This document shows positions 3,156 through 22,417 of a stretch of 24,000 nt of DNA, in pieces (the stretch's first letter is position 1; every line of letters begins with the position of its first letter). The notes below the pieces were generated by a model that had not been told where the DNA came from, searched no databases, and saw only the letters and a list, made by a program, of their open reading frames with translations. Origin of the DNA: an uncultured bacterium. GTDB lineage: Bacteria; Vulcanimicrobiota; Vulcanimicrobiia; Vulcanimicrobiales; Vulcanimicrobiaceae. Location: contig CAZERJ010000004.1 of assembly GCA_964514445.1 (NCBI GenBank), positions 23,666-47,665 of the forward strand, in the 5' to 3' direction. Made by a program: the position numbers and the translations under genes.

Positions 3156-3322
3156 GGCCGCTTGTTGCGAGCCGCAGTGCGCCCGATAGTCTGTAGAGCA
3201 ACTCAGCGTGCGCGCGCAACCGAGGAAGATGCCGTGACCATTCGTATTTGGGGGCCGAGTCGTTTGTGTGCCACTACGTACACATGCGAGTCGCTCGTAT
3301 AGTCATTAACCGGGAGGGGTTT

Positions 3323-5002
3323 TTGCTTTTCAAACGTTACGCGCCGCTGTTTGCGGTAGCGAGTTTACTCGTTTTAGCGTCAGCGTGCGGCCATGCGTCC
3401 AGTGCGCTGCCGTCCGTTACGAACGCTGTACCGGACGCTCAACTGAGCGACCCAACCGCTACAAATAGCACCATCGCGGCACCTACGACAATGTCGTACT
3501 CGCAAAGTGGTTCGACGCTCACCATAACCGGTCCGATTGCTGCGGTACTGAGCAGCACAAAATTTGAAATTAGCGCAGGCACGGGCTGCGGTTCACTCAA
3601 CGTTACAACGACGTCGTCGACGACGTTCAGTCCGTCCGGCGCGAAGCCGGTCGCCGGTGAAACGGTGACGGCAAAGGGCACCGGAAGCTGTGCCACTTCG
3701 CTTACCGCCACAAGCGTCACGGTCTCGTCGACAACCTCAACGCCGGCGCCCACTCAGCCGGCGAGCTCAACCATCACATCGAGCTACGCGACGACACCGT
3801 TTATGCCCAGCAGCCTTGGCAAGATCAGCGCATTCCAGATCTTTGACCAAACCAGCAACGGCACCATCACCGCGGGTACGGCTGAAGTTGACGGCCTGCG
3901 GTACTCCTCTGTATGGGGTGCTCGTCCCGGCATGGGTTCACCGTGGCGCGTGAGCAACAGCGCGCTCAAAAGCTCTTACTACATGCTGATGGATACCGAC
4001 ATGAGCACCAGCGGGTGGGGCGCCATTGGCCACTCGCTCACGTGGTGGAAGACGTATCATCCGGACTGGATCATGTACGCATGCACGTCCACCGGTACGC
4101 CGACGACCACGCCCGCGTACGATGACGGTTTGCCGAACGTTCCGCTCGATATTCATAATCCCGCGGTCGTTCAGTATCAAGTCGCGCAACAGGCAGCTCC
4201 CTATGCGCATCGCAACGGCTACACGGCACTTGCCTTCGATCAAGTTGATTTCTGGTTCGCCGGCTCAGGCGGTCCCGGATATTACCCGTGCGGCATTTAC
4301 AGCGGCGGCAAGTTCGTGCGCCGTTACACCAGCAAGAGCGATCCGAATTGGGCAATCGATGTCGTGAACTGGGTGAAAGCTGCGCATGCCATTCTGCACA
4401 GCAACTCAACAATCGCACCGTACGGCCTGAAGATGATCGTCAGTCATCCGGGCGAGAACATCACGACGAACGAAATCAATTTGCTCGCCAACACCGATGC
4501 GGTTTTGGACGAAACCGGGTTTACAAACTACGGCAAATATCTGATGCCGAGCGTGGCTCCGGTGGAGCGCGAAGCGAATTGGATGCGGTACGCGCAAGCG
4601 CACGGTACCGCGGTGCTCATCAATAACGATTGGGGATCGATCGCAATGGGCGCAGCGCAGAAAGACTACTCGATTGCCACGTATCTGCTGGGCAACGAAC
4701 AAGCGGCGTCGCTGTTTGCTTCTTCTCATACCGGCTACGGCATCGAAAACTGGTATCCGGAGTACTCCACGACGACGGGTAGGGCATGCGGCGAATACTA
4801 CGCCGGAACGGCACCGGGAATTCTCTACCGGAAATTCGCCGACGCACTCGTCGTGGTCAACGCCGGCGGTAGCGGCACGCAGCGCGCTGCGCTTCCGTCC
4901 GGCCACACGTACGTAGACATCGAACGGCGCAGCGTTAGCAACCCGCTAACGATTGCGCCTAACGACGGCTACGTTTTGAAAACGGTGAACGGCTGCTTGT
5001 AG
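3323..5002 (+). CDS. Lipoprotein with Ser/Thr-rich linker and GH114-like / GHL-type TIM-barrel putative glycoside hydrolase domain
   Basis: The track ORF starts at 3248, but GGGAGGGG (3312-3319) sits just before TTG-3323. That start gives MLFKRYAPLFAVASLLVLASAC-GHASS, a lipoprotein-type signal with a near-canonical lipobox (Ala rather than Leu at -3). A Thr/Ser-rich linker follows (TTTSSTTFSPS...SSTTSTPAPTQPASSTITSS). The C-terminal part (PLDIHNPAVVQYQVAQQAAPYAHRNGYTALAFDQVDFW) resembles the 'DIRNP...GFDG...D..D' core of GH114-like hydrolases. A TATAGT -10-like hexamer lies at 3298-3303. Confidence 0.7.
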   Translation: MLFKRYAPLFAVASLLVLASACGHASSALPSVTNAVPDAQLSDPTATNSTIAAPTTMSYSQSGSTLTITGPIAAVLSSTKFEISAGTGCGSLNVTTTSSTTFSPSGAKPVAGETVTAKGTGSCATSLTATSVTVSSTTSTPAPTQPASSTITSSYATTPFMPSSLGKISAFQIFDQTSNGTITAGTAEVDGLRYSSVWGARPGMGSPWRVSNSALKSSYYMLMDTDMSTSGWGAIGHSLTWWKTYHPDWIMYACTSTGTPTTTPAYDDGLPNVPLDIHNPAVVQYQVAQQAAPYAHRNGYTALAFDQVDFWFAGSGGPGYYPCGIYSGGKFVRRYTSKSDPNWAIDVVNWVKAAHAILHSNSTIAPYGLKMIVSHPGENITTNEINLLANTDAVLDETGFTNYGKYLMPSVAPVEREANWMRYAQAHGTAVLINNDWGSIAMGAAQKDYSIATYLLGNEQAASLFASSHTGYGIENWYPEYSTTTGRACGEYYAGTAPGILYRKFADALVVVNAGGSGTQRAALPSGHTYVDIERRSVSNPLTIAPNDGYVLKTVNGCL

Positions 5003-5024: not shown

Positions 5025-5064
5025 AAAAGAAGACGCCGGGCGATTTGCCCGGCGTTCTTTTTTA
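5025..5064. terminator. Bidirectional rho-independent terminator
   Basis: Stem ACGCCGGGC (5033-5041) / GCCCGGCGT (5047-5055), loop GATTT. TCTTTTTT follows on the + strand. AAAAGAAG precedes it, which reads as CTTCTTTT after the hairpin on the - strand. It sits between the convergent + gene (stop 5002) and the minus-strand cluster (small ORF stop 5062). Confidence 0.8.
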
Positions 5065-5326: not shown

Positions 5327-8014
5327 CTAAGCGATCTCGGCGACGAGCGCTTTGAAACCCGCGTCCAACGTTGGACGGACGCCGTGCTCTTTGACGGTGG
5401 CCAGGTACTTGCGATATGCGTGCGCAGCCGCTCGCCTCTGTCCGGTTTGAAGGAGCGCGCGAATCCGTAGCTCCCACGCCGTTTCGTCGCACGGATCGGC
5501 GTCGAACATCATCTTCGCCAGCTCACCGGCCCACAGCGTGTCGTTTGCCTCGATCGCGTCGCGCGCCAGCGCTGCACCAAGCTCCATGGCAAGGTTTTGA
5601 AGCGCGCCGTTCGTTCCGGTAAACCACTCGTAATCGGCAAGGTGCGAGGGAATGCCGTTCATGATACCGCTGTAAAACTCAAACAACTCGTTTCGCTTTG
5701 CACGTAGCAGCTCGTTATCTTTGAACGCCGCTTCACAGATGGGTCGCATGTCGCGAAAATCGCATCCGATATGTTCGCCGATGACGTAACGATTTTTCGA
5801 AATCGCGACGACATTCGGATCGCCCGTCTGGATCCGCGCACGCCGAATCGTCATCTTGAGCGCATTGGCCGCTTCTTGTGGATCTTGGCCCGGCCACAGC
5901 ATCTCGCAGAGTTCGTCGCGCTCGACGGGCCGCTGTTTGACGGCCAGTGCAACCAGTACATCGAAGACGCGCCGCGAGACGTTGATTGCCACCCCCTTGC
6001 GTTCAACAGTGCCCTTGGTAATGCACAGCGCCAAAGGTCCGTCGGCCTCACCTTCGCCCGCCATTGCGCGGTAGTGCTGAACGAGGCCATGCAGCGGCTC
6101 GCCGGGCGCGGGCGATTCGCCGGTCCGAAGCCGCTCGAGGGAAGATCCTAACTTGCCGGACGTCTCCAGACGATCGCAGATCAGTTGCGCCTCTGCAATC
6201 AATGCATCGCGTTTTTGCGGAACGAGCTCCGCGATCGCGGCACGCAGAATAATGCGGCCGATGAGTGCGCCGGAAACGTCGACGTTCTCGAGCGCGGCCG
6301 TCAGGCGAAGCAGCGCTTCATCGACCGAGCCCGAGTAAAACGCTTCCATCGCGTGCATATTCGCGCGCCAGACCGCCGTGCCCAGGCGCGGAACGTCTTG
6401 ATCGAACGGTGCATCGGCGATTGCGGAATACGCGGCAAATTCCCGGACGTTATGGCGTTCTGCAAACGAGCGCAGCGTCTTGCGCGCGTGGTCGGCGGTT
6501 GTGCGATCGCCTGCAAGCATCGCGCCGTTCGCTAATTCATGCATTGCGGCGGCATGTTCGGTTGCGGAGATCGATGCAGCCAAATCGATGCCGCGCAGCA
6601 GAAATGTTTTCTCGGCCTCCCAATTGCCGTCCATGCGTGCGCGCCGGACATTGATGGCGTTGAGCGCCGCTGCAACCTTCGGTAAAGCCGCAAATTCGCG
6701 CGGCACATTCTTCAGAACGTTCGTCGCTTGCGTCAACGAACACCGTAATGTCAGCGCGCTCGCCCACAATGCCGCGACGATCGCATCCGCGGCATTTGTT
6801 GAAACGCCGTCCGGCTCAACTAATGCACCAAATGCCGCGTCGGACTCCTCGAATTCCCCGCTTTCGCCAAGCATGAACGCGACCAGAGCTCGAAGCATTT
6901 TGACGACCTGCGCATCTTCGCTCGCCTCGCACCAAGCCAGCAATACTTGGCCCTCGGCGAGCATAACGTGCGAATCGACGTAGAGCCGGCGGAACGACCA
7001 CGAACCGATCCACAAGCGCGGATTTGCCGTTAGTAAACTTTCCGGTATCGCCTGAAGAATCTCGATCGTGTGCGCATCCGGCTGCAACAATTCGCCGGGA
7101 GCGCGGGCAAGATATTCGGCGGCATCCGCGGGACGGCCGGTGTTGAGCGCAACCGTCGCGGCCGAGGTATAATCTTCGCGCTCGAGCAGTGATTCGATCG
7201 TAGACAACGCATACGAGTGCATGTCTTCAGGGCACAAATCCGCGAGCGTCGCCGATAGCAGCGGCGTAAGAACGAGCCGGCCGTCGCGCTCGATGAGCAA
7301 ACGGCGATGCTGCAAATTTCGCAAGCCGGCGGCGATATTGCAGGCCGGCAGCGCCTCCTGGAGGGCTTCTTCGCGCGTATCACCGATCGCGGAGGCGGTC
7401 ATGAGAACGGCGAGTTCTTCGACGGGCAGCGTTGCGACGATCCGGTTGTACACGAAACGCCGTAGGGGCGAATACGCGTTCGAATGTAAATTGCGCGCGG
7501 CCGATTCGCCTTCAGTGCGCAAAACGCGGCGCAGGAACGCTACGGCGCCGGCATGCCCGCCTGTCTGTTCGAAAGCAAAACGCGCCAGCGACATCGACGT
7601 CGATACTGTGGCGCCACGCAAAAATTCCGCGATTTCGTCGACGGTAAATGCGAGATCGGTGTCGTCGAAAAGACACACCTGCATGGCACTCTTGGAGCGA
7701 AACGGATGCGGCGCTGACGAATCCGTTCCAACGGCAACGGCGAGTTTACCCTGTGCGGGCGATTCCGACAACGCATCATACTGCGCCGCCTCGGCCGCCG
7801 ACAGTTCGTCCCATTTTGGTAAGAGCGAAATGCAACCGTAACCAAACAGTTCAGCCAGCTGGCTCAGAAAATGGCTTCGGCCGGATCCCGGCTGCGCCAC
7901 AATGTACACGTACCGAACCTCTGGGTCCGATACGCGTGCGAGAAGCCGCGCCCGTTTCACACTACACCCCCTAGCCGTGACTAGATCCATGTCCCCCGAA
8001 CGGTTACGCTTCAT
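5327..8014 (-). CDS. Large STAND-like regulator, paralog 1: MalT-like P-loop NOD + helical repeats + C-terminal OmpR/SARP-type winged helix + complete BTAD
   Basis: 895-aa ORF.
- P-loop context: VRYVYIVAQPGSGRSHFL.
- Walker-B-like: QVCLFDDTD.
- MalT-like arm: LRRFVYNRIVATLPVEELAVLMTASAIGD...LQHRRLLIE.
- C-terminal wHTH: INVSRRVFDVLVALAVKQRPVERDELCEMLWP...ANALKMTIRRARIQ.
- BTAD-like end: ADYEWF...DADPCDETAWELRIRALLQTGQRRAAAHAYRKYLATVKEHGVRPT.
- Alternative start: ATG-7990 (MDLVTARG...). Confidence 0.9.
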   Translation of the reverse strand: MKRNRSGDMDLVTARGCSVKRARLLARVSDPEVRYVYIVAQPGSGRSHFLSQLAELFGYGCISLLPKWDELSAAEAAQYDALSESPAQGKLAVAVGTDSSAPHPFRSKSAMQVCLFDDTDLAFTVDEIAEFLRGATVSTSMSLARFAFEQTGGHAGAVAFLRRVLRTEGESAARNLHSNAYSPLRRFVYNRIVATLPVEELAVLMTASAIGDTREEALQEALPACNIAAGLRNLQHRRLLIERDGRLVLTPLLSATLADLCPEDMHSYALSTIESLLEREDYTSAATVALNTGRPADAAEYLARAPGELLQPDAHTIEILQAIPESLLTANPRLWIGSWSFRRLYVDSHVMLAEGQVLLAWCEASEDAQVVKMLRALVAFMLGESGEFEESDAAFGALVEPDGVSTNAADAIVAALWASALTLRCSLTQATNVLKNVPREFAALPKVAAALNAINVRRARMDGNWEAEKTFLLRGIDLAASISATEHAAAMHELANGAMLAGDRTTADHARKTLRSFAERHNVREFAAYSAIADAPFDQDVPRLGTAVWRANMHAMEAFYSGSVDEALLRLTAALENVDVSGALIGRIILRAAIAELVPQKRDALIAEAQLICDRLETSGKLGSSLERLRTGESPAPGEPLHGLVQHYRAMAGEGEADGPLALCITKGTVERKGVAINVSRRVFDVLVALAVKQRPVERDELCEMLWPGQDPQEAANALKMTIRRARIQTGDPNVVAISKNRYVIGEHIGCDFRDMRPICEAAFKDNELLRAKRNELFEFYSGIMNGIPSHLADYEWFTGTNGALQNLAMELGAALARDAIEANDTLWAGELAKMMFDADPCDETAWELRIRALLQTGQRRAAAHAYRKYLATVKEHGVRPTLDAGFKALVAEIA

Positions 8015-8216
8015 GGAAAGCCGTAATGAGCGTTGACTAAACCGATTCTTTTACGCCGCTACTCGCAGCGGACCAGAATCGTAAAGCCAACCGTTCTTAA
8101 CCTTCACGTTAACCGGGGACGTTTGTAATCCTCGGTACCAGCCGAAGTCTACAAACTCTTTGCATGGAATTTACACGACGTCGAAGCGCCGGTGAGCCTG
8201 CGCTGGGACTTATCGC

Positions 8217-8537
8217 CTACGCGCGGTGATCGACGTTATTGTGATAGTAGTACGCGTTGATGAACGGAGGTAACAGTGCGGCAGATTCGCGGCCGACGGC
8301 ATTGACGAGGTCGGCTGCGTGTTTCATGCTATCGCACTCCTGAGCCGCACCCGCAAGCGCCTGCGTGATGAGGTTCGCCGACTTTTCGCCGTATTTCCGC
8401 ACGAAATTTGAAACCTTCACTGAATTGCGCGAGATCATCCACGCGTGAAACCGGACGTCGGCGGCAAAGACGCCGGCGCTGATTTGGTCGCCCAAAGGCG
8501 ATCTCTGATTGGGCATGGTGGTCGAGAAATAAGACAT
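8217..8537 (-). CDS. Hypothetical cytoplasmic protein, 106 aa
   Basis: This is the internal ATG-8537 of track ORF 8217..8729. GGAAGGAA lies about 8 nt upstream, and the start is 17 nt after the stop of the upstream lipoprotein gene (8555). Third codon positions are GC-rich. It begins MSYFSTTMPNQRSPLGDQ... and I recognise no family. The 5' extension of the track ORF overlaps the lipoprotein gene and is Arg-rich junk. Confidence 0.55.
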   Translation of the reverse strand: MSYFSTTMPNQRSPLGDQISAGVFAADVRFHAWMISRNSVKVSNFVRKYGEKSANLITQALAGAAQECDSMKHAADLVNAVGRESAALLPPFINAYYYHNNVDHRA

Positions 8538-8554
8538 CCTGAGTTCCTTCCGTG

Positions 8555-9013
8555 TTACTGCAAAATGTGCAGTGTGAAAACCTGAGTACCGTTTGAACCG
8601 AGAGCTATGTTTTGCGCGCAGTCGCCGGCTGCGCGTGGAAATGCGGAGATGACGACCGTGGGTGTGGTTTGGCCTGAATAGGCGTCCGGCGCGATCAACG
8701 CATATGAAAGCGTTGCGATCGCGCTGCATGGTCCGCTGAGAATACGAGGGTTAGCCGCGGAAAATCCGGCGAGAAACGTTTGCGAGGACGGCACGACGCC
8801 GCCGGTCGGCACGCTATCGACGTAGACGAATTCCATTGCCGGTTGTGCCAATGAAAAGGAAAGCGTTGCCGGTTGATAGCGCACCTGTGCGCTCCATGGC
8901 GCCGCGGGCAGCGACGCGAGTGCGTCGGTTCCGAGCGCGGACGCGGCTCCGCCGCCGCATGCCGGCAGCACGACGAGTGCGAGGAGAAAGACAATCGCGG
9001 CGACCCATTTCAT
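8555..9013 (-). CDS. Lipoprotein of unknown function (152 aa)
   Basis: GGAGGG (9025->9020) lies 6 nt before ATG-9013. That start gives MKWVAAIVFLLALVVLPAC-GGGAAS, a signal peptide with lipobox LPAC. The rest of the protein is beta-rich. Confidence 0.75.
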   Translation of the reverse strand: MKWVAAIVFLLALVVLPACGGGAASALGTDALASLPAAPWSAQVRYQPATLSFSLAQPAMEFVYVDSVPTGGVVPSSQTFLAGFSAANPRILSGPCSAIATLSYALIAPDAYSGQTTPTVVISAFPRAAGDCAQNIALGSNGTQVFTLHILQ

Positions 9014-9093
9014 GAACAACCCTCCGTTGCTGCCATGGTACGCAGGGCCGGGGTCGCCGCGGTGCCGCTTATGGTGTCCTAGGTTTGCTTTTT

Positions 9094-9115
9094 AGTGTCC
9101 GAACCGGCGGACACT
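9094..9115. repeat. Perfect inverted repeat AGTGTCCG-N6-CGGACACT
   Basis: 8-bp arms at 9094-9101 and 9108-9115. The repeat lies 5 nt downstream of the ABM-like gene stop and upstream of the lipoprotein gene. On the transcribed (minus) strand it is followed by AAAAAG, not a U-tract. It contains the GGACAC motif. A further GGACACC (minus strand, 9079->9073) lies 21 bp downstream. Confidence 0.5.
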
Positions 9116-9120
9116 GAGCG

Positions 9121-9429
9121 TCAGGCGCGCGCCGGTGTGCGGTGATGCTCGATGATGCAGGCGCCTTCGTCGAGCGAAACGCGCTTAATTTTCATTTGCG
9201 GATAGTTGCGTTTGACGAACTCGACGGCGAGCTCGTTGGATTCTTTCTCGCCCGCCTCCGTTTCGAAGACGCTGACGGTATCGAGCGTGTCGCTTCCGGT
9301 TTTAATCGCGTAGTATCCGACGAAGCCGCTTACGTGTTTGAGGCGCGGGACGAAATCGTCCTCGAGCCGGTCCTTGAGATCGCGGTAGATTTCGGGCTCA
9401 ACGGTGTACCGGCGAATGGCCACGTGCAT
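9121..9429 (-). CDS. ABM/Dabb-like ferredoxin-fold protein (antibiotic-biosynthesis-monooxygenase-like), 102 aa
   Basis: ATG-9429 with AAGG 6 nt upstream. MHVAIRRYTVEPE...HVSGFVGYYAIKTGSDTLDTVSVFETEAGEKES fits the ABM-domain pattern (M.v.i..y.v......Gf..y......d....vs.fe.....). The 12 extra N-terminal residues in the track ORF are probably not translated. Confidence 0.65.
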   Translation of the reverse strand: MHVAIRRYTVEPEIYRDLKDRLEDDFVPRLKHVSGFVGYYAIKTGSDTLDTVSVFETEAGEKESNELAVEFVKRNYPQMKIKRVSLDEGACIIEHHRTPARA

Positions 9430-9501
9430 AATCGACCTTGCCTTTCCAGAAAGGAAGATAGGCACTGAGTATAGCGCTTCGAACGGGAGGGTGCACGGGG
9501 G

Positions 9502-11841
9502 TTAGGCGGCGGTTTTTATGCCGAGGGCTTCGCTGAGTTCGAGGGCGAGGGATTCGATGGCGGCGTGGGTTCCGATGAACCATTCGTATTCGGCCAAATG
9601 ATGCGGCATCGAGGACGTGACGCGTACGCAAAACTCGAAGATCTGTTCGCGATTGCTCGCTAGCACTGCCGGATCGCGCAGCGCCGCTTCGCAAAGATTA
9701 CGCATGACGCGCAAATCGCATGCCACGTTTGCGCCCAAGCTGTAGCGGCCGTTGGACGTGCAGATGATTTCCGGCTCGCCGCTTTGAAGGCGCGCGCGCC
9801 GTATCGTCATTTTCAGCGCGTTGGCCACGTCGTCGCACGCTTCGTCGGGCCACAGCATCGCGCACAATTCTTCACGAGTGACCGGCCGCGCCCGTACGGC
9901 AAGCGCGACAAGCAGATCGAAGACGCGGCGCGACACGTTAAGCGGAACGCCGCCGCGCTCCAGTGTGCCTTTTGTGATGCACAGCGATAGCGATTGCGGC
10001 GCGTCGCTCGGCGCTGCGAGTTTGCGGAAATGCAGGGCTGCTGCGCGCAGATGTCCGTCCGCGGGCAGTTCACCGGCGCGCAAACGTTCGAGCGCGTCGG
10101 CGACACGCGGTCCCAGATTCACGCTAAGTTCCGATGCTTCGCGCAGCAGATCGTCGCGGCGATTCGGATCGAATTCTGCCACGGCGACGCGAACGATCGT
10201 GCGGCCGAAGGTCCAGCCTGAGTTGTCGAGTTCTTGGAGCGCGCTGGCGAGCCGGGTTTGCGCTTCGTCCGCAGATTGCGCGCGTAGAGCCTGCATCCAA
10301 ACGCGGCTCGCGCGCAAAACCGGCGCTACAAAACGCTCGACCGGCATGCCGATACGCGCTTCGAGCGCTTTCAAACGTTCGCAGGCGTACTCGAACGTGG
10401 TAGCATCGCCCGCGAGTGCGGCTCCGCTTCCAAGTTCGTGCAGCGCGGCGGCTTCGTACACGTAGTGATCGGTCGGGGTGAACTCGACGGCACGCAGCAA
10501 AAACGTCTTTTCGGCTTCCCAGTTGCCGTCGAAGCGCGCCCGGCGCTTGTTGATGTCGTTCATCAGTGAAACGAGTGCAGGCGTTGCCGAGATAGACCCG
10601 CCCACGCCTTTCAAAAGATCCGTCGCGCGTGCGAGATCGCCACGTAACGAAAGTGACGCCGCCCACAGTGCGCGCACCGTGGCGTCCGGTTCGTTCGTTG
10701 CCATCTCGAACTGAGCGTCGGCTTCTTCGAAACGCCCTAACTCGCCGAGCATAAAGCCAAGCAATCCCCGGAGCACTCGCACCGTTGCCGCGTCTTCCGA
10801 ACCCTCGTAGCACGCAAGCAAGCTTTGCGCTTCACCGATCATGATCGGTGCGTCTACCGTTAGGCGGCGAAACGACCAGGAACCAGCCCACGTGCGGGCA
10901 TTCATCGTCAACAGCGCCTCGGGCAGGGCTCGCAGCGCCGCTTTGAGGTCGACGTCGGGACGCAGCACGTCACCGGATTCGAGAACCAGATACGTCAATG
11001 CGTCAAGCGGACGGCCCAGCTGCACGGCGATGCGCGCGGCACATGCGTAATTGCCGCATGCCAGGAACGCGTCAATAGCACTAGCGGCATTCGAACGCAA
11101 ATCTTCGCGGCACAGATCTTGCATCGCAGCTCGAAACATCGGGAAGACGTCCACCGCGCCGCCATTTTCGCGGATGATCCGGCGTTTGACGAGGTTGTTC
11201 AGCAGCGATCGAACGTTGCACGCGGGAAGTGCCTGGCGCAGCGATTCCTCGCGGAAATCTTCGATAGCTGCGGCAGTGAGGAGGGCAGTAAGTTCTTGAG
11301 CCGGCAGCGTGCGCAGGACGCGATCATAAAGGAAGCGGCGCATCGGCGCGTACGCGCTTGATGAGAGATCGCGAGCAACTTCCTCGCCCTCACTGCGCAG
11401 CACTCGCTGCATAAACGTGATTGTACCGGTGTGGCCGGCCGTTTGCTCGTACGCAAAGCGCGGAAACGACGGCGAACACGAATGCCCGAGAATCTCCGTC
11501 ATTTCGGGCAGCGTAAAGGCGAGATCGGCGTCGGTGAAGACTGCAACGCCCATCGGATCTTTATCAGCGAACGGGTTCGGGGCAGCAGGATCGGTCGCAG
11601 TTGCGACTATGAGTCTGCCTTCTTTAGGGTGTGAAAGAAGCAGGCGATACTGCTCTGCCTGTACAGGCGAGAGCGCGTCCCAGTCGTTCAATAGCGACAT
11701 ACTCGCCGGACCATAGATCTGCGCGACGTGCGCCAGCAAGAGAAGTTTGCCGGCACCGGTTTGACCTACGATATAGACGTAACGAACATCGCTGTCTGTG
11801 ATACGCGCCGCTAGGCGGTCTTGAATCATTATCACACCCAC
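9502..11841 (-). CDS. Large STAND-like regulator, paralog 2: same architecture as 5327..8014 but ending inside the BTAD
   Basis: 779-aa ORF, collinear with paralog 1 along its whole length.
- P-loop context: VRYVYIVGQTGAGKLLLL.
- Walker-B-like: VAVFTDADLAF.
- MalT-like arm: MRRFLYDRVLRTLPAQELTALLTAAAIED.
- Shared central motif: NWEAEKTFLLR.
- C-terminal wHTH: LNVSRRVFDLLVALAVRARPVTREELCAMLWP...ANALKMTIRRARLQ.
- It ends at ...AEYEWFIGTHAAIESLALELSEALGIKTAA, about 85 aa short of paralog 1.
- The start is GTG-11841 or ATG-11829. Confidence 0.9.
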   Translation of the reverse strand: MGVIMIQDRLAARITDSDVRYVYIVGQTGAGKLLLLAHVAQIYGPASMSLLNDWDALSPVQAEQYRLLLSHPKEGRLIVATATDPAAPNPFADKDPMGVAVFTDADLAFTLPEMTEILGHSCSPSFPRFAYEQTAGHTGTITFMQRVLRSEGEEVARDLSSSAYAPMRRFLYDRVLRTLPAQELTALLTAAAIEDFREESLRQALPACNVRSLLNNLVKRRIIRENGGAVDVFPMFRAAMQDLCREDLRSNAASAIDAFLACGNYACAARIAVQLGRPLDALTYLVLESGDVLRPDVDLKAALRALPEALLTMNARTWAGSWSFRRLTVDAPIMIGEAQSLLACYEGSEDAATVRVLRGLLGFMLGELGRFEEADAQFEMATNEPDATVRALWAASLSLRGDLARATDLLKGVGGSISATPALVSLMNDINKRRARFDGNWEAEKTFLLRAVEFTPTDHYVYEAAALHELGSGAALAGDATTFEYACERLKALEARIGMPVERFVAPVLRASRVWMQALRAQSADEAQTRLASALQELDNSGWTFGRTIVRVAVAEFDPNRRDDLLREASELSVNLGPRVADALERLRAGELPADGHLRAAALHFRKLAAPSDAPQSLSLCITKGTLERGGVPLNVSRRVFDLLVALAVRARPVTREELCAMLWPDEACDDVANALKMTIRRARLQSGEPEIICTSNGRYSLGANVACDLRVMRNLCEAALRDPAVLASNREQIFEFCVRVTSSMPHHLAEYEWFIGTHAAIESLALELSEALGIKTAA

Positions 11842-11905: not shown

Positions 11906-11951
11906 ACGACACCTCTAGAGACACCGCGGAGACACATGTATCCCGTATCGT
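11906..11951 (+). promoter_or_regulatory. Three direct repeats (ACGACACC / GAGACACC / GAGACACA) at 12- and 11-bp spacing, plus a -10-like TATCGT; candidate SARP-type activator site and promoter of the pilus operon
   Basis: GACAC(C/A) occurs at 11908-11913, 11920-11925 and 11931-11936. TATCGT at 11946-11951 begins 9 bp after the third repeat. The site lies in the 176-bp divergent region between paralog 2 and the SCPU operon. Confidence 0.4.
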
Positions 11952-12017: not shown

Positions 12018-12560
12018 ATGCTATTTTCTGCGCGCCGCATCCGCACGGCGCTCATCGCATGCTCTCTGCTCGGCGCGGCCGCTGCAATGCCGATGGCTTC
12101 TTACGCCGGCACCGCAAGCGGTACGGCTGCCATTTCGGCGAGCGTCATCAACAATTGCGTTTTCGGTACAAACTCGCTCTCGTTCGGCAACTATGATGCC
12201 GTGTCGGCGAATAAAACTGCGAACCTCACCGGCACCGGAACGGTCAACGTAACGTGCACCAGCGGCGACGCGTACACGATTACGGCAGACGCCGGCGCAA
12301 ACGGCACGCATGCCGGAACCGGCTTCACGCGTGCAATGAGCTACACGACGACCGGCACGACGCCGACGACGTACTATCTCAACTACGAGCTGTACATCGA
12401 CAGCGGTATGGCGAACATTTGGAACAGCACGAACAAACTGAGCCAGACGGGCTCGGGCGCAAGCCAGGCGATCAGCTTCTACGGCAAAGTCGGCAGCGGA
12501 CAAAATACCGTTCCGGCGGCCTCGTATAGCGACACCGTCAACCTGAGCATCACGTTCTAA
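12018..12560 (+). CDS. Spore-coat-protein-U (SCPU) domain fimbrial subunit, Csu-type major pilin candidate
   Basis: 180 aa. Signal peptide MLFSARRIRTALIACSLLGAAAAMPMASYA-GT. SCPU hallmarks are present: NNCVFGTNSLSFGNYD, VNVTCTSG, and the C-terminal ASYSDTVNLSITF. It is the first gene of a chaperone-usher operon. Confidence 0.9.
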   Translation: MLFSARRIRTALIACSLLGAAAAMPMASYAGTASGTAAISASVINNCVFGTNSLSFGNYDAVSANKTANLTGTGTVNVTCTSGDAYTITADAGANGTHAGTGFTRAMSYTTTGTTPTTYYLNYELYIDSGMANIWNSTNKLSQTGSGASQAISFYGKVGSGQNTVPAASYSDTVNLSITF

Positions 12561-12571
12561 TCCAACAGATA

Positions 12572-12619
12572 AAGGGCCGCTACTCCCCACTTAGCGGCCC
12601 TTTTCCCTATTTTCTTTTG
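12572..12619 (+). terminator. Intra-operon intrinsic terminator/attenuator between the major subunit and chaperone genes
   Basis: Perfect 11-bp stem AAGGGCCGCTA (12572-12582) / TAGCGGCCCTT (12592-12602), 9-nt loop, followed by the T-rich TTCCCTATTTTCTTTTG. Confidence 0.7.
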
Positions 12620-12640
12620 CAGTTTACTGGAGTATCACAC

Positions 12641-13363
12641 ATGGGCACGAAGCTTCGCGCCTTATCGCTTTTTGCAGCAGCAGCAATACTGTGCGCCGTT
12701 CCGGCGCACGCCGCGACGTTTGCTATCGATCCGACGCGTTTGGTTTTCTCGACGATGACGTCGGGCGACATCGTTGTCAGCAACATCAGCACGCAGCCGG
12801 TGCGCCTGTCGGTGCGGGCATACGACTGGACGCAAGATACGCGTAACGCCGAAATTCGCAATGTGACCGAAGCGGTCGCATTCTTTCCGCAAATCTTCAC
12901 GGTTGCACCCGGCAGCGCGCAACGGGTGCGCGTTGGTGCGCTCGGGGCACCGGCCGCTACGGAGCATGCGTACCGCTTGATCGTGTCGGAACTACCGCCG
13001 ATGCAGCGCGAGCCGATCGCCGGTTCGGGACTGCAAATTTTGACACGTGTTGACCTGCCGGTTTTCATCAGTGCAACGAACACGGCGAACGCGCACGTTG
13101 CGCTCGCGGGCGTGCAGCGGCTGAACGACGGCGTCAGCGTCACGCTGGCGAATAACGGAAACACGCACGCCGAGCAATCGGAGATGCGCGTCGAAGGTTT
13201 GGACGCGAGCGGACGCCATCTGTGGGACGGCAATGCACACGCGTTCTACGTGCTGGCCGGCAGCCGCATCGGCGTTCGGATTAACGCACCCCCGCATCTC
13301 ATGAGCGCTACGCGATCTGTCCGCGTCTCATGGGACCGGCAGCAGTGGTCCGAGCGGCTCTAG
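12641..13363 (+). CDS. Periplasmic fimbrial chaperone (PapD-fold, CsuC-like)
   Basis: GGAG (12629-12632) lies 8 nt before ATG-12641. Signal peptide MGTKLRALSLFAAAAILCAVPAHA-AT. Motifs IDPTRLVF, YRLIVSELPP and LQILTRVDLPVFI match the chaperone N-domain pattern. The gene sits between a pilin gene and an usher gene. Confidence 0.85.
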   Translation: MGTKLRALSLFAAAAILCAVPAHAATFAIDPTRLVFSTMTSGDIVVSNISTQPVRLSVRAYDWTQDTRNAEIRNVTEAVAFFPQIFTVAPGSAQRVRVGALGAPAATEHAYRLIVSELPPMQREPIAGSGLQILTRVDLPVFISATNTANAHVALAGVQRLNDGVSVTLANNGNTHAEQSEMRVEGLDASGRHLWDGNAHAFYVLAGSRIGVRINAPPHLMSATRSVRVSWDRQQWSERL

Positions 13364-15624
13364 CCGCATTCCTTATCGCGGTCCTGAGCTCTGCGCAATG
13401 TCTTGCGCAGAGCGACCGCATTATTGCCGACTTTACCTGGAACGGTGTAGCGCAGCCGCGCGCGCTCGTCGTGCTCAGGGACGGCGATGCCTTGATTTCG
13501 ACGCGCGTGCTCGAGCAATTCGGCGTCGCGGCTAAGGGCCGGTGTCTGCAAACGATCGAGGGCGCGTGTTTCGTTTCGCTCAACGCACTGCGTCCGGCGG
13601 TGACGTATCAGTTCGATATGCAGAACCTTGAACTGAAGGTGCAGACCGCTGCTGCGCTGTTGCCGCGCACGACCGTCAAAGTGATGACCACTCCGGCACC
13701 GTACAGCGATGATTTCGCGGCGGGCGCGAGTATGAATTACTCGCTGCGCAGCGACTTTCAGAACGCGTGGACCGGATCCTTCGATGCCCGCTACGCATGG
13801 CGGCGAAACGCCGTCTTTGAAACGACGGCCGGACGCTCGCTGAGCGGAAACATCGAACGCGGCCTTTCGTCGCTGACCTTCGATGCACCGGGTGCCATGC
13901 GGCGAGCAGTTTTGGGCGACACGATGCTTTCCGCCGGGCCGCTCGACGGTGCGGGCATCATCGCCGGCATTTCGGTGCAGCGAGAATTCTCACTCGATCC
14001 GTATGAAGTCACGTTTCCAACGCCCTCGCTGCGAACCACGGTCACGCGCCCATCGCAAGCCGACGTGTACGTCAATGGCGCGCTTGTGAAAAGCATCGAT
14101 TTACCGCCGGGCGTGTACAACTTGACGGATATTCCGATTGTGTCCGGTTATTCGGACGCGCGTGTGGTGGTGCGCGATGAATTCGGGGCGCGATCGAACG
14201 ATTTACTGCAATACGGTGCAACTTCGCTGCTGCGCCCCGGATTGACGGATTATCATTATAGTGTCGGCTTGATTCGCGGCACGCATGGTCCCAATGGGTA
14301 CGGGACGCCGGCAGCGTCGGCATTTTACCGCATCGGAACGGGCAGTCAGGCCACGTTCGGCGGCGCACTTCAAGCGACGCCGGGTGATTTTACCGCCTCG
14401 TTCCAGATGGATCGTACGCTCGGTTTCGGTGTGCTCGAGAGTTCCGTTGCAGCCAGCCGTGGAAACGACGGCACCGGCGATGCGTTCTCGATCGCGTACG
14501 GGAATAGCGGACGGCACAGCGCGACGGGCATTGAAGCGCAGTGGCAGAGTGCCTCGTACCGCAAGATTACCGACAGCGCGCAGTTCGAAACAATTCTTGC
14601 CGATGCGGCGGTCTCGCAGATGGAGCGGCTTGGAGCGGGCACGACCGTTTCGTTTATCGCGCGCTACAGCAAATATTTACGTGAAGGTATTGTGCGTTCT
14701 GCGAGCGTTGCGCTCACGCAGCGCCTCGGCGCCTGGGATCTGACGGCGCAATACACGCGCGGCATGCAAAGCAGCGGGCTCTCGCGGCGCATCTCGGACA
14801 TTGCGATTTCGATCAACCGCTCGCTCAACGGACGCGATACGCAAACGATGCAGTACGACTCGGCGAGCGGCGATTCCACGATGACCGTCAGTCACACGAA
14901 CAATTCGCCGCTGGGTGTTTCGTATCGCGCGGGTGCCGATGCGCACGGGGCGGTTCCATTCGTTGCGGCGGTCGATGCGGGTCTTCCGTTTGCTACCGTC
15001 CATGCGAACGCGGCGTATATGCGGCACGAGCACGCGCCGTCAGGGAGCCTTGAAGTAGACGGTGGCGTTGTGTATGGCGAGCGGCATCTCTTCTTCTCGC
15101 AGCCCGTGGGCGATGGGTACGCGATTGTCGACGCAGCCGGACTGGGCGGCGCGTCGCTTTCGCTTGACGGCCAAACCGCGGGCAAAACCGGCCGCGCCGG
15201 ATATGCGCTGCTACCGTGGCTCGCGTCGAATCAAGCAAACAGCATCGGCATTTCAAACGCCGGATTGCCGCTCGAAGATATCGTCGACGCGAACGAGCGT
15301 CGCGTCGGCCCCGGTTATCATGCCGGAACGCTGGTGCATTTTTCAACGCAGCGCGTGCATGCGCTGTATGGACGGGTGCAGATTTTGGCCGGCGGCGCGA
15401 CGCGCATTCCGGCGTACGGCGAAATCGATCTCCTCGATGCGAGCGGCAAAACGCTGGCGAGCTCGCCGATCGACGATGAAGGGCGCTTCTTTTTAGAGCG
15501 CGTGAGCGAGGGAACGTATCACGCGGCAATTGCCGACGTTCACGGCGAGTGTGATATGACGCTGAACGTTGCCAATTTCAACACTCCGTCGCATGACGTG
15601 GGAACGCTGGTATGCGGGCGGTAA
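13330..15624 (+). CDS. Outer-membrane fimbrial usher (CsuD-like)
   Basis: 764 aa. Signal peptide AALAAFLIAVLSSAQCLAQS. The body has beta-barrel-like composition. The motif GVYNLTDIPIVSGYSDARVVVRDEFG matches the usher pattern G.f.l.dl...sG...v.v.e..G. The C-terminal domain is beta-sandwich-like (YGRVQILAGG...GTYHAAI). It overlaps the chaperone gene by 34 nt; GTG-13345 is an alternative start. Confidence 0.85.
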   Translation: MGPAAVVRAALAAFLIAVLSSAQCLAQSDRIIADFTWNGVAQPRALVVLRDGDALISTRVLEQFGVAAKGRCLQTIEGACFVSLNALRPAVTYQFDMQNLELKVQTAAALLPRTTVKVMTTPAPYSDDFAAGASMNYSLRSDFQNAWTGSFDARYAWRRNAVFETTAGRSLSGNIERGLSSLTFDAPGAMRRAVLGDTMLSAGPLDGAGIIAGISVQREFSLDPYEVTFPTPSLRTTVTRPSQADVYVNGALVKSIDLPPGVYNLTDIPIVSGYSDARVVVRDEFGARSNDLLQYGATSLLRPGLTDYHYSVGLIRGTHGPNGYGTPAASAFYRIGTGSQATFGGALQATPGDFTASFQMDRTLGFGVLESSVAASRGNDGTGDAFSIAYGNSGRHSATGIEAQWQSASYRKITDSAQFETILADAAVSQMERLGAGTTVSFIARYSKYLREGIVRSASVALTQRLGAWDLTAQYTRGMQSSGLSRRISDIAISINRSLNGRDTQTMQYDSASGDSTMTVSHTNNSPLGVSYRAGADAHGAVPFVAAVDAGLPFATVHANAAYMRHEHAPSGSLEVDGGVVYGERHLFFSQPVGDGYAIVDAAGLGGASLSLDGQTAGKTGRAGYALLPWLASNQANSIGISNAGLPLEDIVDANERRVGPGYHAGTLVHFSTQRVHALYGRVQILAGGATRIPAYGEIDLLDASGKTLASSPIDDEGRFFLERVSEGTYHAAIADVHGECDMTLNVANFNTPSHDVGTLVCGR

Positions 15625-16064
15625 TTCTGGCGCTCGCCATGACGCTTGCGTGTTGCTGTCCGGCGCTGGCGACATGCAGCTTTGGGACGATCGGCGGTCT
15701 TTCGTTTACGTACGATGTTTTGAGCGGCGCGGCGGCGACATCGTCGGCGAGCATGAGCGTAACGTGCGATGCGGCGAGCAGCACGAATGTTGCTTTGAGC
15801 ATTGATAACGGGCTGCACTCGACGACCTCGAATCCGTGGCGCAAGTTGCTGAACAGCTCGAATAATCAGACGCTGCAGTATAATATTTTTACGACGGCCG
15901 GCTACGCCAGCATTTGGGGCGACGGCACGAACGGCACCGTTACGCAGTCGCAGCCACAAACCGCTTCAACGTTTTCACTGACGATGTACGGTGAGATTCC
16001 GGGCGCGCAGAACGTCTCCGCGGGAAATTTTTCCGATACCGTCACGGTGACGATGACGTTCTAG
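15612..16064 (+). CDS. Second SCPU-domain fimbrial subunit (minor or tip subunit candidate)
   Basis: 150 aa. Signal peptide MRAVILALAMTLACCCPALA-TC. Motifs CSFGTIGGLSFTYD, MSVTCDAAS and the C-terminal GNFSDTVTVTMTF. It overlaps the usher stop by 13 nt. Confidence 0.85.
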   Translation: MRAVILALAMTLACCCPALATCSFGTIGGLSFTYDVLSGAAATSSASMSVTCDAASSTNVALSIDNGLHSTTSNPWRKLLNSSNNQTLQYNIFTTAGYASIWGDGTNGTVTQSQPQTASTFSLTMYGEIPGAQNVSAGNFSDTVTVTMTF

Positions 16065-18175: not shown

Positions 18176-19078
18176 TTGGAGCATGCGGAGTGGCTTGCCG
18201 AGCGCTTTGAGGCGGCAAGGCCGCGCTTGCGGCGCATTGCGCAGCGCATCCTCGGATCGGCTGCCGAATCCGAAGACGCCCTGCAGGAGAGCTGGCTGCG
18301 CATCAGCCGCGCCGATGTCGCGCGCGTCGAAAATTTCGACGGCTGGCTCACGACTGTTGTTGCACGCGTCTGCCTTGATGCGCTGAAGCGGCGCGAAAGC
18401 CGGCGCGAGGAGTTGACGCCGGACGATCCGCGTCGCGACACAGTGACGATTGCTCCCGGCGAACGTCCCGAGGAAGAGGCTGTTCTTGCCGATTCGATTG
18501 GAGTTGCCGTGATGATTTTGCTTGATACGTTGCCGCCGGCGGAGCGTGTTGCATTCGTGCTGCACGATATGTTCGACGTACCGTTCGACGACATTTCGGA
18601 GATCGTCGGCAGAACGCCCGAAGCTTCGCGGCAACTCGCAAGCCGCGCGCGCCGTCGCGTGCGCGGCGCGTCGGCGGGCCACGATGCTTCCAGGCAGCGC
18701 CGTGATGAAGTTGTGCGCGCATTCCTTGCGGCTTCGCGCAGCGGGAATTTTTCCGCGTTGCTTGCGCTGCTGGATCCGGCGGCAACGCTGCGCGCAGATG
18801 CGGCGGTACTGGCGATGGGCGGCGCGGAGTACTGGCAGAGCGATCGTTTGAAAACCGGCATCCAAGGCGCGGAGACTGTTGCACGAACGTTCGCAGGGCG
18901 TGCGCGTGCGGCGCAGCCTGTGTTTATCGACGGTGAACCGGGAGCGGTGTGGATTCACGAAGGCGAGGTTCGTGTTGCGTTCCGCTTTACGGTAACCGAC
19001 GATCGGATTACGGCGATCGATATGATCGCTGATCGGGATGCAATTGCGCAAGCCGTCATCGAACGTGAGCGCGCATGA
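18176..19078 (+). CDS. ECF sigma-70 factor with fused C-terminal NTF2/SnoaL-like domain (SigJ/ECF41-like)
   Basis: 300 aa. TTG-18176 follows GGGAGGGG. Region 2: EDALQESWLRISR...FDGWLTTVVARVCLDALKRR. Region 4: LPPAERVAFVLHDMFDVPFDDISEIVGRTPEASRQLASRARRRV. A further ~110 aa follows (VVRAFLAASRSGNFSALLALLDP...ITAIDMIADRDAI), typical of the fused regulatory domain. No anti-sigma gene is adjacent. Confidence 0.9.
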   Translation: MEHAEWLAERFEAARPRLRRIAQRILGSAAESEDALQESWLRISRADVARVENFDGWLTTVVARVCLDALKRRESRREELTPDDPRRDTVTIAPGERPEEEAVLADSIGVAVMILLDTLPPAERVAFVLHDMFDVPFDDISEIVGRTPEASRQLASRARRRVRGASAGHDASRQRRDEVVRAFLAASRSGNFSALLALLDPAATLRADAAVLAMGGAEYWQSDRLKTGIQGAETVARTFAGRARAAQPVFIDGEPGAVWIHEGEVRVAFRFTVTDDRITAIDMIADRDAIAQAVIERERA

Positions 19079-21373: not shown

Positions 21374-22317
21374 CTAGGTAACCGTCGACACTTCGCTACG
21401 CTTGAAGAGAATTTTGCCGGGCCTGCCTGGTGTTTCGGCAGCTTTTAGCGCTTCGCGTGCGTCGGCGAGTGGATAGACGCCGCCTGCGGATAGCGGTAAT
21501 TCACCGGCAGCCGCTAACTCACAGACGCGCTTTACTGCGCCCAACATTCGTCCGGAATTTTCTGGACGTTGCGCCCACGTGTACATCCAAAATCCGCGCA
21601 CGGTAAGTTCGCGGTAAATCATTAATCCGGGATCGAGACGCATTGCTTGACCTGAAAGGCCTCCAAAGACGATTAATTCGCCACGAGGCGCGAGCAAACG
21701 CTGGAGCTGCATCGAATCGTGACCGGCGACTGAATCGATCGCGCGCACGATGGGTGCGCCGCCTGTGATTTGCTTGAGTTCTGTTTCCCAGTTGCCTTCG
21801 GTTACAACGACGTGCGGTGCGCCGGAGTCCTGAAGTTGTTGTGCTGTGGCCACGCTTCGGACCAGACCAACCACGTTGATGCCGCGGTCGCGCGCTTCGC
21901 GAATGAGAATTCGTCCGACGGCGCCGTTCGCTGCGTTGATCACGATCCAATCGCCGCTCTGGATGTGCAGGTCGTCCAAGAGGCCGAGTACCGACGTCGG
22001 CATTGCGAGCAATTGACATGCTATATCATCGGGAATGGCGTCCGGCACCGCATACATGCAACGCGCGTGCCGATTTCAATCGCGCCGGCGGCTTCTCCGG
22101 TTTCATCGACAATGCCGACGAGTTCGGAGCCTCCGATTGCGGGCAGCGCGGGCTTCACGCCGTAACCGCCACGAATAGTAGCGATATCGTGGTTATGAAT
22201 GGGCGAGCGAACCAAACGCAAGCGAACCTGTCCGTTACCGGGCTCGGGTCGTTCCATCTCGACGGGGGTAATGACCTCGGCCGCTTCGCCGAACTGCGAA
22301 TATTGAAGAGCCAGCAT
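21374..22317 (-). pseudogene. MDR-superfamily (quinone oxidoreductase / enoyl-reductase-like) gene disrupted by a frameshift with a probable small deletion
   Basis: The N-terminal 98 aa (22317->22021) read MLALQYSQFGEAAEV...IHNHDIATIRGGYGVKPALPAIGGSELVGIVDETGEAAGAIEIGTRVA and then CMRCRTPFPMI*. The remainder (22057->21374) is in another frame: MYAVPDAIPDDIACQLLAMPTS...INAANGAVGRILIREA (Rossmann motif). The combined span is 944 nt, which is not a multiple of 3. Confidence 0.7.
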
Positions 22318-22417
22318 ACGAGCATCATACGACAATAGCGCAGCGCCCACTGCGCAGCTCTTCCATCGGAGGCGTCTTGCGGAAAGGGTCAGGCGTTCGC
22401 TGGGGAATATCACGGTT

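Follow-up and report, generated by a model that had tools for sequence, protein, structure and literature searches.

Two neighbouring genes on the minus strand of contig CAZERJ010000004.1, from an uncultured bacterium of the Vulcanimicrobiaceae, encode paralogous regulators (here P1 and P2) in which a MalT-type STAND nucleotide-binding oligomerisation domain (NOD) is followed by a helical-repeat sensor and then by a C-terminal SARP domain, made up of an OmpR-type winged helix and a BTAD. The stretch of DNA analysed, referred to below as the window, is 24,000 nucleotides long, and its phylum is called Eremiobacterota throughout (Vulcanimicrobiota, or WPS-2). P1 and P2 are lineage-specific duplicates and belong to a small subclade within a family that is large and uncharacterised and is found mostly in Eremiobacterota. 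The C-terminal position of the SARP domain is undescribed in published SARP classifications, yet it is not rare. Within the subclade the ATPase motifs have decayed, P2 ends part-way through its BTAD, and phased GACAC(C) direct repeats occupy the two intergenic regions that adjoin P2. The finding is one of domain shuffling and not of a new principle; what is new in this analysis is the undescribed domain order, together with a candidate operator and regulon.

Paralogy and domain architecture

Open reading frames and their translations place P1 at 5327..8014 (minus), where an ATG start gives a full-length STAND-SARP regulator of 895 residues, and P2 at 9502..11841 (minus), where the longest open reading frame has a GTG start and encodes 779 residues. 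The public gene call of P2 starts instead at the ATG at 11829 and yields 775 residues. A protein identical to P1 is present in public data, in which P2 forms a singleton cluster. The two proteins align collinearly by BLASTP over P1 residues 16-816, with 380 identities in 801 positions (47%, E=0), and all of the peptide strings by which the original prediction had recognised a pair of collinear paralogs are present. The winged helix is the best-conserved domain of the pair (61% identity, versus 40-56% in the other domains), and its recognition helix, ANALKMTIRRAR, is the same in both proteins and almost the same throughout the subclade.

At the level of single proteins, the Pfam evidence for these domains is marginal. 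BTAD is detected in P1 at 27 bits (cut-off 22.1) and is not detected in the Pfam scan of P2; Trans_reg_C scores 20.1 bits in P1 and 22.1 bits in P2, both just below the cut-off of 26.2, and AAA_16 matches weakly, with 18 and 11 bits respectively against a cut-off of 32.6. A scan with NCBIfam models gave no useful match, and a profile of P1 and P2 alone found only weak OmpR-type matches among PDB sequences. Nevertheless, all three modules are clear in the family profile and in the structural comparisons. In an alignment of 45 family members Pfam identified BTAD in 40, Trans_reg_C in 38, AAA_22 in 29 and AAA_16 in 16, and GerE, the model for a helix-turn-helix (HTH) of LuxR type, matched neither P1, P2 nor any of the 45. 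When the 45-member profile was compared with PDB sequences, its positions 3-388 matched the MalT NOD (8bob, E=1.2e-37) and its positions 719-940 the SARP domain of AfsR (8hvr, E=1.6e-16); EmbR (E=5.8e-13) and response regulators were matched too.

AlphaFold2 models built on the same 45-sequence alignment are confident for both proteins (pLDDT 90.7 for P1 and 91.1 for P2; pTM 0.71 for each). In Foldseek searches of the PDB, both models retrieved the STAND-TPR protein 6mfv, which gave the best E-value (4e-8), and MalT 8bob, with E-values ranging from 4e-8 to 8e-6. The C-terminus of P1 superposes on the AfsR SARP domain with a TM-score (TMt) of 0.74 and a root-mean-square deviation of 3.5 Å over 250 columns, and P1 also matches EmbR (TMt ~0.5). 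P2 shows a weak but consistent match to MalT domain III (1hz4, E=5e-3, TMt 0.41).

The modules of P1 can be followed along the minus strand. A reduced nucleotide-binding domain (NBD) at residues 20-120 (7655..7957, minus), delimited from the AlphaFold2 secondary structure and from alignments, is succeeded by the helical domain, the winged-helix domain of the NOD and the arm at residues 121-345 (6980..7654, minus), as indicated by the profile match to MalT 15-414 and by the model. The sensor at residues 346-655 (6050..6979, minus) is TPR/SUPR-like and consists entirely of helical hairpins in the model, with approximate boundaries. The SARP domain occupies residues 656-895 of 895: the OmpR-type winged helix covers residues 656-748 (5771..6049, minus), on the basis of Pfam and of alignments with AfsR and with response regulators in the PDB, and the complete BTAD, with helices 1-7, covers residues 749-895 (5330..5770, minus), on the basis of Pfam and of the Foldseek match to AfsR. 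Seven main BTAD helices are seen in the model, between residues 752 and 894. The winged helix of P2, recognised through its Trans_reg_C score, lies at 9724..9996 (minus).

The order from MalT-type NOD through helical-repeat sensor to C-terminal winged helix and BTAD, and with it the placement of both proteins in the family, can thus be assigned with high confidence. From the sequence alone, the original prediction had proposed a MalT-type module at the N-terminus and an OmpR/PhoB-type winged helix with a BTAD at the C-terminus; the profile-HMM searches and structure predictions that it suggested as checks place the STAND NOD and the SARP domain at just these ends.

A large family with a C-terminal SARP domain

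A HMMER scan with the profile of P1 and P2 against 1.84 billion cluster representatives (clusters at 50% identity) returned 970 clusters at E<1e-3, of which 421 passed a threshold of E<1e-10 and 56 one of E<1e-30. Members are mostly 880-970 residues long and are aligned end to end; those at E<1e-10 are almost all ~900-960 residues long and collinear. For the clusters looked up, the sources named are metagenome-assembled genomes (MAGs) of Candidatus Baltobacteraceae and Vulcanimicrobiaceae, and among relatives whose source is named P0004, a 41% identical protein from a Baltobacteraceae MAG, is the closest to P1. Annotation pipelines label family members "BTAD domain-containing putative transcriptional regulator", "AfsR/SARP family transcriptional regulator" or "hypothetical protein". 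When one genome per GTDB species was scanned with a subset of 10 sequences, tblastn confirmed 118 matches, from which 80 loci were kept. Nearly all of these loci are from Eremiobacterota; one MAG supplies three of them, and 98 family proteins were found in 75 loci. The same kind of scan with the two-paralog alignment gave no matches, a word-indexed protein search with P1 recovered P1 itself only, and a word-indexed search with the 45-sequence profile returned mostly MalT/LuxR proteins and proteins with an N-terminal SARP domain, not the family. Outside the phylum, the same order of an N-terminal AAA domain and C-terminal Trans_reg_C and BTAD is found in a 980-residue protein of Cellulomonas xiejunii (Actinomycetota); it is also present in a 1033-residue Acidimicrobiales protein and in JGI proteins annotated "MalT / DNA-binding SARP".

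In all published SARP classes (small, medium, large, SARP-LAL and AfsR) the SARP domain is N-terminal (PMC10972967, PMC10936776), and a full-text literature search for 'C-terminal SARP' found nothing. The domain order had been singled out in the original prediction as one not known to it from any characterised class. It is indeed undescribed in the SARP literature, but with 421 clusters at the stricter threshold of E<1e-10 it is no local oddity.

Some members carry additional N-terminal regions when their sequences are read by eye: P0061 appears to have about 200 residues resembling a class III nucleotide cyclase, P0096 (1761 residues) a second STAND-plus-repeat unit, and P0132 a multi-pass membrane region. 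Within the wider family, the largest set of orthologues (loci L003-L082), which share about 47% identity across many MAGs, has recurrent neighbours in a subset of its loci, namely a Lon protease (26 loci), a small LuxR/GerE protein (21), a fatty-acid desaturase (19) and HSP20 (16). This neighbourhood may reflect the plain synteny of one orthologous group, or it may mark a stress-related regulon.

Decay of the nucleotide-binding domain in the subclade

The consensus of the family follows MalT element by element, with Walker A as APAGxGK[ST], Walker B as hhhh[E/D]NxE and sensor 1 as CSR, followed by PH, DLAF..E and GWP. Walker A is canonical ([AG]xxGxGK[ST]) in 88 of 108 full-length family representatives; one canonical relative is the 964-residue Vulcanimicrobiaceae protein MGP6158801.1. 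The original prediction had named an established family with mostly canonical P-loops as the finding that would speak against it. This applies in part: the P-loops are canonical in most members, but the family is an uncharacterised one.

The subclade of the window comprises six members (P1, P2, P0003, P0004, P0006/P0270 and the fragment pair P0007/P0005), and Walker A is non-canonical in every one of them: AQPGSGRS, GQTGAGKL, GQPGSGRS, GQAGSGRT, VQPGSGFT and AQRGSGFQ. The degenerate motif of P1, AQPGSGRS, at residues 40-47 (7874..7897, minus), has Arg in place of Lys as judged by comparison of its translation with the family consensus, and in P2 the motif GQTGAGKL (11743..11766, minus; translation and alignments) retains the Lys and has Leu at the Ser/Thr position; the P-loops are thus as degenerate as they had first been read. 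In an alignment that includes MalT, about 64 residues are absent from the subclade between helix 1 and the Walker B strand, a segment corresponding to strand 2 and a helical insert. The model of P1 agrees with this deletion, since its NBD sheet has four beta strands only (residues 35-39, 62-65, 91-96 and 113-116). The strand equivalent to Walker B in P1, CISLLPKWD (7808..7834, minus), aligns with LVIDDYH of MalT, and the first acidic residue is replaced by Pro; at this position P1 reads SLLPKWD and P2 SLLNDWD, and no acid is conserved across the subclade. Sensor 1, VVLSRN in MalT, reads AVGTDS in P1 and ATATDP in P2, and its Arg is gone from all subclade members but possibly one. In addition, the GW motif reads GH in P1 and P2, the family GWP corresponding to GGHA in P1. 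The strings CLFDDTD of P1 (7655..7675, minus) and VFTDAD of P2, initially taken for Walker B, are something else: they align with LLEIGSQQ of MalT just ahead of LAF..E, where the family counterpart is LRxxDLAF, and hence represent strand 5, which lies past sensor 1 and leads into the DLAF..E motif.

Decay of the P-loop is not confined to this subclade, since sporadic variants occur in the otherwise full-size members P0010, P0018 and P0045 (APAGYRKT, APAGYEKT and APAGFGKA). The public gene calls of P0004 (locus L083, ~9845-10000) and P0003 (locus L087, ~3870-4038) begin at an internal Met, with the frame open upstream, and omit the first 50-55 or so residues, including the degenerate P-loop. 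The P-loops of these two proteins became visible only after the gene calls had been extended upstream, and automated domain searches on the public entries would therefore miss the NBD.

Given these losses, which take in strand 2 with its insert, the Lys or Ser/Thr of Walker A, the acid of Walker B and the Arg of sensor 1, the NOD of the subclade can probably no longer hydrolyse ATP. It may only bind nucleotide, or it may serve as a nucleotide-independent scaffold. A precedent for a STAND protein with degenerate Walker motifs is provided by KpAvs8 (PMC13581612), and the proposal that the two proteins are non-hydrolysing is accordingly plausible at the level of sequence, although the decay is shared by the six-member subclade and is not complementary between P1 and P2. 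The main alternative is that the NOD is still a conventional ATP/ADP switch, in which the variant P-loop binds nucleotide and exchanges it on receipt of a signal, as in MalT. In its favour, the glycine-rich loop (QxGSG) and the strand that precedes it (VRYVYIVxQxGSG) are conserved across the subclade, and an N-terminal Arg-containing helix, whose counterpart in MalT contacts the P-loop, is retained. Moreover, MalT and AfsR are activated by ATP binding and not by hydrolysis (PMC10936776, PMC10427625). However, the Lys position is occupied by Phe in two members, and in one of these the Ser/Thr has given way to Gln; P2 is without the Ser/Thr that coordinates Mg; and the missing Walker B acid, sensor-1 Arg and NBD segment would have to be accommodated as well. 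A conventional switch is thus considered unlikely, though it is the best placed of the alternatives.

Truncation of P2 and its relationship to P1

P2 stops inside the BTAD, as the original prediction had noted, and is about 75 residues short of the end of P1, where the prediction had put the difference at about 85. Its BTAD stump (9505..9723, minus) contains helices 1-3 only and ends where helix 3 of the AfsR BTA domain ends when the two are aligned through the family profile; the last element of the P2 model is a helix at residues 749-774. A tblastn search with the P1 C-terminus against the DNA downstream of P2, in all frames, found no BTAD remnant, and an unrelated small gene begins 36-70 bp past the P2 stop. 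The truncation is clean and old, and a frameshift or a recent nonsense mutation as its origin was ruled out on these two grounds. The small gene (9121-9429/9465, minus) encodes a protein of about 100 residues which, by eye, looks like a dimeric alpha/beta-barrel (ABM-like) and has no match in Pfam or NCBIfam.

In the transcription complex of AfsR, helices 1-3 pack on the DNA-binding domain and helices 3-7 seat sigma region 4 (PMC10936776). The AfsR residues in contact with sigma region 4 and the alpha subunit's C-terminal domain are L211, E213, R240, L243, D245, E246, L247, V249, D250, R252 and L263, and substitutions at this interface lowered activation in assays (PMC10936776). All of these contact residues fall past the equivalent of the P2 stop, and P2 is therefore likely to be defective in activation; as its recognition helix is identical to that of P1, it is likely to bind the same sites. 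By analogy with AfsR, P2 might act as a negative or modulating partner at the same operators, binding DNA without BTAD-dependent contacts to the polymerase, a role that we put forward tentatively. It could be a competitor of P1 or a mixed partner, and could sense a different or additional signal.

Two other accounts of the pair have been considered. According to the first, which takes up an idea of the original prediction, P1 and P2 have complementary defects and are active only as a mixed oligomer, in the manner of paired plant NLRs in which one partner can dispense with its P-loop. The genes are adjacent on one strand, their recognition helices are the same and the winged helix is their best-conserved domain. 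In P2 the Lys of Walker A is still present, as is an Asp at the position equivalent to MalT D129, but the activation surface is missing, whereas P1 has a full BTAD but Arg and Lys at those two positions. SARP domains bind DNA as side-by-side dimers, making a mixed dimer on phased repeats geometrically plausible. On the other hand, P0004, P0006 and P0003 are the sole family members in loci of 22.5, 14.5 and 9.6 kb, despite the same decay of the NBD. Full BTADs are present in P0003, P0004, P0006 and the P0005/P0007 fragments, and there is no second P2-like truncated protein among the 1.84 billion representatives. Since the decay of the NBD is common to all six subclade members it predates the duplication that gave rise to P1 and P2, and since the relatives have no second copy in their loci a protein of the P1 type works with no partner of the P2 type. 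An obligate heteromeric pair with complementary degeneracy is therefore possible in principle but improbable, and comparison with the relatives lends it no support.

The second account, that P2 is a decaying duplicate without a function of its own, appears equally doubtful. The loss of the C-terminal residues, among them the surfaces that AfsR uses for activation, would fit such a history, as would the singleton status of P2 in public data. Against it stand an uninterrupted frame of 775-779 codons in which the similarity to P1 and the family-invariant positions have been kept, a model that is confident throughout, a stop placed exactly at a helix boundary with nothing left of the BTAD beyond it, and a DNA-binding domain that is better conserved than any other part of the protein.

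A further suggestion, that P1 and P2 are anti-phage (Avs-like) STAND defence proteins and not transcription factors, draws on the presence of Avs3 and Avs5 among the Foldseek matches and can be all but dismissed, because those matches follow from the shared NOD-repeat scaffold, PADLOC returned 0 matches, the effector is a SARP domain that binds DNA, the Pfam matches include no nuclease, protease, SIR2 or TIR domain, and the neighbours are pilus, lipoprotein and signalling genes.

Candidate operators and putative target genes

The sites bound by SARPs are direct repeats with a spacing of 11 or 22 bp (PMC10936776), close to the -35 region, and for this reason phased repeats were sought in the intergenic regions. 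Candidate operator 1 (11906..11939, plus) consists of three GACAC(C/A) direct repeats with spacings of 12 and 11 bp, the GACAC cores being located at 11908, 11920 and 11931 on the plus strand (aaCGACACCtct aGAGACACCgc gGAGACACAtg). It is situated 80-110 bp upstream of a chaperone-usher pilus operon and 67-96 bp upstream of the divergent P2. Candidate operator 2 (9072..9101, minus) consists of two GGACAC repeats (9099 and 9078), 21 bp apart, and lies 55-80 bp upstream of a lipoprotein-like gene. On both strands of the window there are four phased GACAC pairs, against 0.28 expected, all of them in the two intergenic regions adjoining P2, and the triple was found in none of 300 shuffles. As a background, five such pairs occur in 1.01 Mb of other Eremiobacterota loci, or 0.05 per 10 kb compared with 1.7 in the window.

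The repeats recur beside a relative of P1 in another genome. In the locus of P0004 (L083, from the Baltobacteraceae MAG), a GACAC triple at 12505, 12527 and 12538, immediately past the regulator stop, sits upstream of a row of genes encoding a PAS-histidine kinase, a response regulator with HD-GYP and a GGDEF protein. In the same locus, a 21-bp pair (9761 and 9740, minus) precedes the orthologous lipoprotein gene, with the same motif and spacing as in the window. In the locus of P0003 (L087), GGTGTCC-4 nt-GGAGTCC is found in the divergent intergenic region upstream of the lipoprotein cassette. The GACAC(C) repeats are non-random and recur in a second genome, and the comparison of sequences slightly favours their being the operator of the subclade regulators. 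The hexamer TATCGT follows the last repeat by 8 bp at the pilus site (11946-11951) and by 2 bp at the lipoprotein site of L083 (~9730, minus); given the 2-bp spacing in L083, TATCGT as a -10 element at the SARP-typical 8 bp was not relied on. No sigma-70-like promoter directed towards the pilus operon was detected.

The putative targets differ in how far they are conserved. The lipoprotein-like gene (8555..9019, minus) encodes 154 residues, in which VLPAC was read by eye as a lipobox; the protein has no match in Pfam or NCBIfam, and is 48% identical to a neighbour of the regulator in L083 and 52% identical to one in L087. As judged by sequence comparison, it is followed in all three loci by a small gene, which in the window (8217..8537, minus) encodes 106 residues without a Pfam match that are 45% and 32% identical to 83-residue neighbours in L083 and L087, respectively. 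The resulting two-gene cassette, of a lipoprotein-like protein of about 150 residues and a protein of 83-106 residues, spans 8217-9019 in the window, 8940-9658 in L083 and 2450-3177 in L087, in each case on the minus strand. Because it is kept across genomes and the pilus operon adjoins the regulator only here, the cassette would form the conserved part of the putative regulon, and it is likely to be the best candidate for a conserved target.

The pilus operon (12018..16064, plus), which is divergent from P2, encodes a spore coat protein U (SCPU) subunit, a PapD-like chaperone, an usher and a second SCPU-like subunit. Pfam scores are 86 bits for SCPU, 49 bits for PapD_N and 60 bits for Usher; the second subunit is below the Pfam threshold and is 34% identical to the first over the C-terminus. 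The operon belongs to the SCPU class, also termed 'archaic' or sigma-type, and in a literature search pili of this class were apparently nowhere discussed for Eremiobacterota. From the position of candidate operator 1, the operon is probably a local target in this genome, and P2 is likely to be autoregulated.

Genes for cyclic-di-GMP signalling are found beside three relatives from the subclade: a PAS hybrid kinase, the response regulator with HD-GYP and a MASE4-GGDEF protein beside the regulator of L083 (12662-17415), an EAL protein in L084 (7583-8386), and a weak, sub-threshold GGDEF-like protein in L087 (3174-3644). Together with the pilus operon of the window, these neighbours hint at a surface or biofilm theme, which is suggestive only.

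Other features of the window

P1 is separated from a convergent gene (3248-5002) by a strong hairpin (5032-5056), rich in GC and with T-runs on either strand, which is a probable bidirectional terminator. On the plus strand, an ECF-type sigma factor gene (18176-19078) encodes regions 2 and 4 in its initial ~165 residues, followed by an unassigned C-terminal extension of ~135 residues, and overlaps the start of the aminotransferase gene downstream. A zinc alcohol dehydrogenase is represented by two overlapping open reading frames on the minus strand (21374-22057 and 22021-22590), with ADH_N and ADH_zinc_N apart, which could reflect a frameshift, a pseudogene or an assembly error. A DUF1801 gene among the neighbours shares 71% identity with a gene of an Eremiobacterota MAG.

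Proposed mechanism

A mechanism can be proposed by analogy with MalT and AfsR, whereby a family member would in effect be a MalT in which the C-terminal LuxR DNA-binding domain has been swapped for a SARP domain. A signal would be received by the helical-repeat sensor, the NOD-arm module would then change its conformation or oligomeric state, and this change would release or position the C-terminal SARP domain. The SARP domain would in turn bind direct GACAC(C) repeats in phase, at spacings of 11 or 21-22 bp. In the case of P1, contact of the BTAD with RNA polymerase would lead to activation; P2 would occupy the same operators without BTAD helices 4-7 and would thereby modulate expression. Taken as a whole, the model of a sensor acting through a hydrolysis-dead NOD on a SARP domain bound to phased repeats, with P1 as activator and P2 as modulator, is moderately favoured.

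Several points weigh against this model. The repeat motif is a post hoc finding with a core of only 5-6 bp; the pair in L087 is degenerate only; and the spacing from the repeats to a -10-like element is inconsistent between sites. A further pair in L083 (17428/17439) lies just past the stop of the GGDEF gene, and the single pair in L084, beside P0006, lies between convergent genes, with no obvious promoter in either case. In the 80 loci from the wider family there are no SCPU or usher genes, and a pilus operon adjoins the regulator in this genome only. P2 could still activate through winged-helix contacts alone, like OmpR-type regulators. Finally, QxGSG is conserved and P-loop variants with Arg in place of Lys often still bind nucleotide, so that the NOD of the subclade may depend on nucleotide.

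A bolder version of the model would make the subclade a group of nucleotide-independent 'pseudo-STAND' transcription factors, with the NOD reduced to a scaffold. P1 would be the activator and P2 would retain more of the P-loop, and mixed dimers or oligomers of the two on GACACC would set the expression of the pilus and the lipoprotein. This version is regarded as rather improbable.

Relationship to known regulators and significance

The switch that MalT, AfsR, Apaf-1 and the NLRs of plants, animals and bacteria have in common is a STAND ATPase. The family resembles MalT and the LAL regulators in the order of its NOD elements (N-terminal Arg helix, P-loop, Walker B strand, sensor 1, LAF..E, GW, winged helix and arm) and in having a helical-repeat sensor after the arm, followed by a C-terminal DNA-binding effector. 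The effector is a LuxR/GerE HTH in MalT, whereas it is an OmpR-type winged helix with a BTAD in the family, and the subclade of the window differs further from MalT in its decayed ATPase motifs and shortened NBD. With AfsR and the large SARPs of Streptomyces, the family shares a SARP domain that is combined with a STAND NOD and a sensor of TPR type; the C-terminus of P1 superposes on the AfsR SARP domain, and phased direct repeats spaced by 11 or 22 bp would be the expected sites. In those proteins, however, the SARP domain is N-terminal, the best match of the family NOD is to MalT and not to NB-ARC, and the large SARPs are from Actinomycetota whereas most named sources of the family are Eremiobacterota.

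The SARP-LAL regulators (PimR, FilR and SanG) likewise combine a SARP domain with a LAL/MalT-like ATP-binding half and are without a LuxR HTH (PMC10972967). In them the SARP domain comes first and the ATPase half last, and because this order is the opposite of that seen here the family represents a different fusion and not a SARP-LAL group. EmbR of M. tuberculosis shares the winged helix and BTAD fold but carries an FHA domain after the SARP domain and has no NOD. Degenerate ATPase motifs are also known from the sensor NLRs of paired plant NLRs, which are STAND proteins acting as immune receptors. KpAvs8 resembles the subclade in having kept the STAND scaffold with decayed Walker motifs (PMC13581612), but it is an immune receptor, whereas the output of the subclade is transcriptional and its NBD has undergone a large deletion.

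Published SARP classifications do not include the order in which this large family couples a switch of the MalT type with a SARP output. As most members with a named source are from an uncultured soil phylum, the family widens the view of SARPs as regulators of Actinomycetota with the DNA-binding domain at the N-terminus. The subclade, in which the scaffold has been kept while the ATPase core has decayed and shrunk, offers a natural test of STAND switching without hydrolysis. If the scaffold reading, with its split roles for P1 and P2, were true, the pair would be a transcriptional counterpart, in an uncultured phylum, of sensor/helper NLR pairs. To our knowledge, essentially no pair of transcription factor and operator is known from Eremiobacterota, and the locus offers a concrete candidate regulon for the phylum, comprising the phased GACACC repeats, the lipoprotein cassette and the pilus operon.

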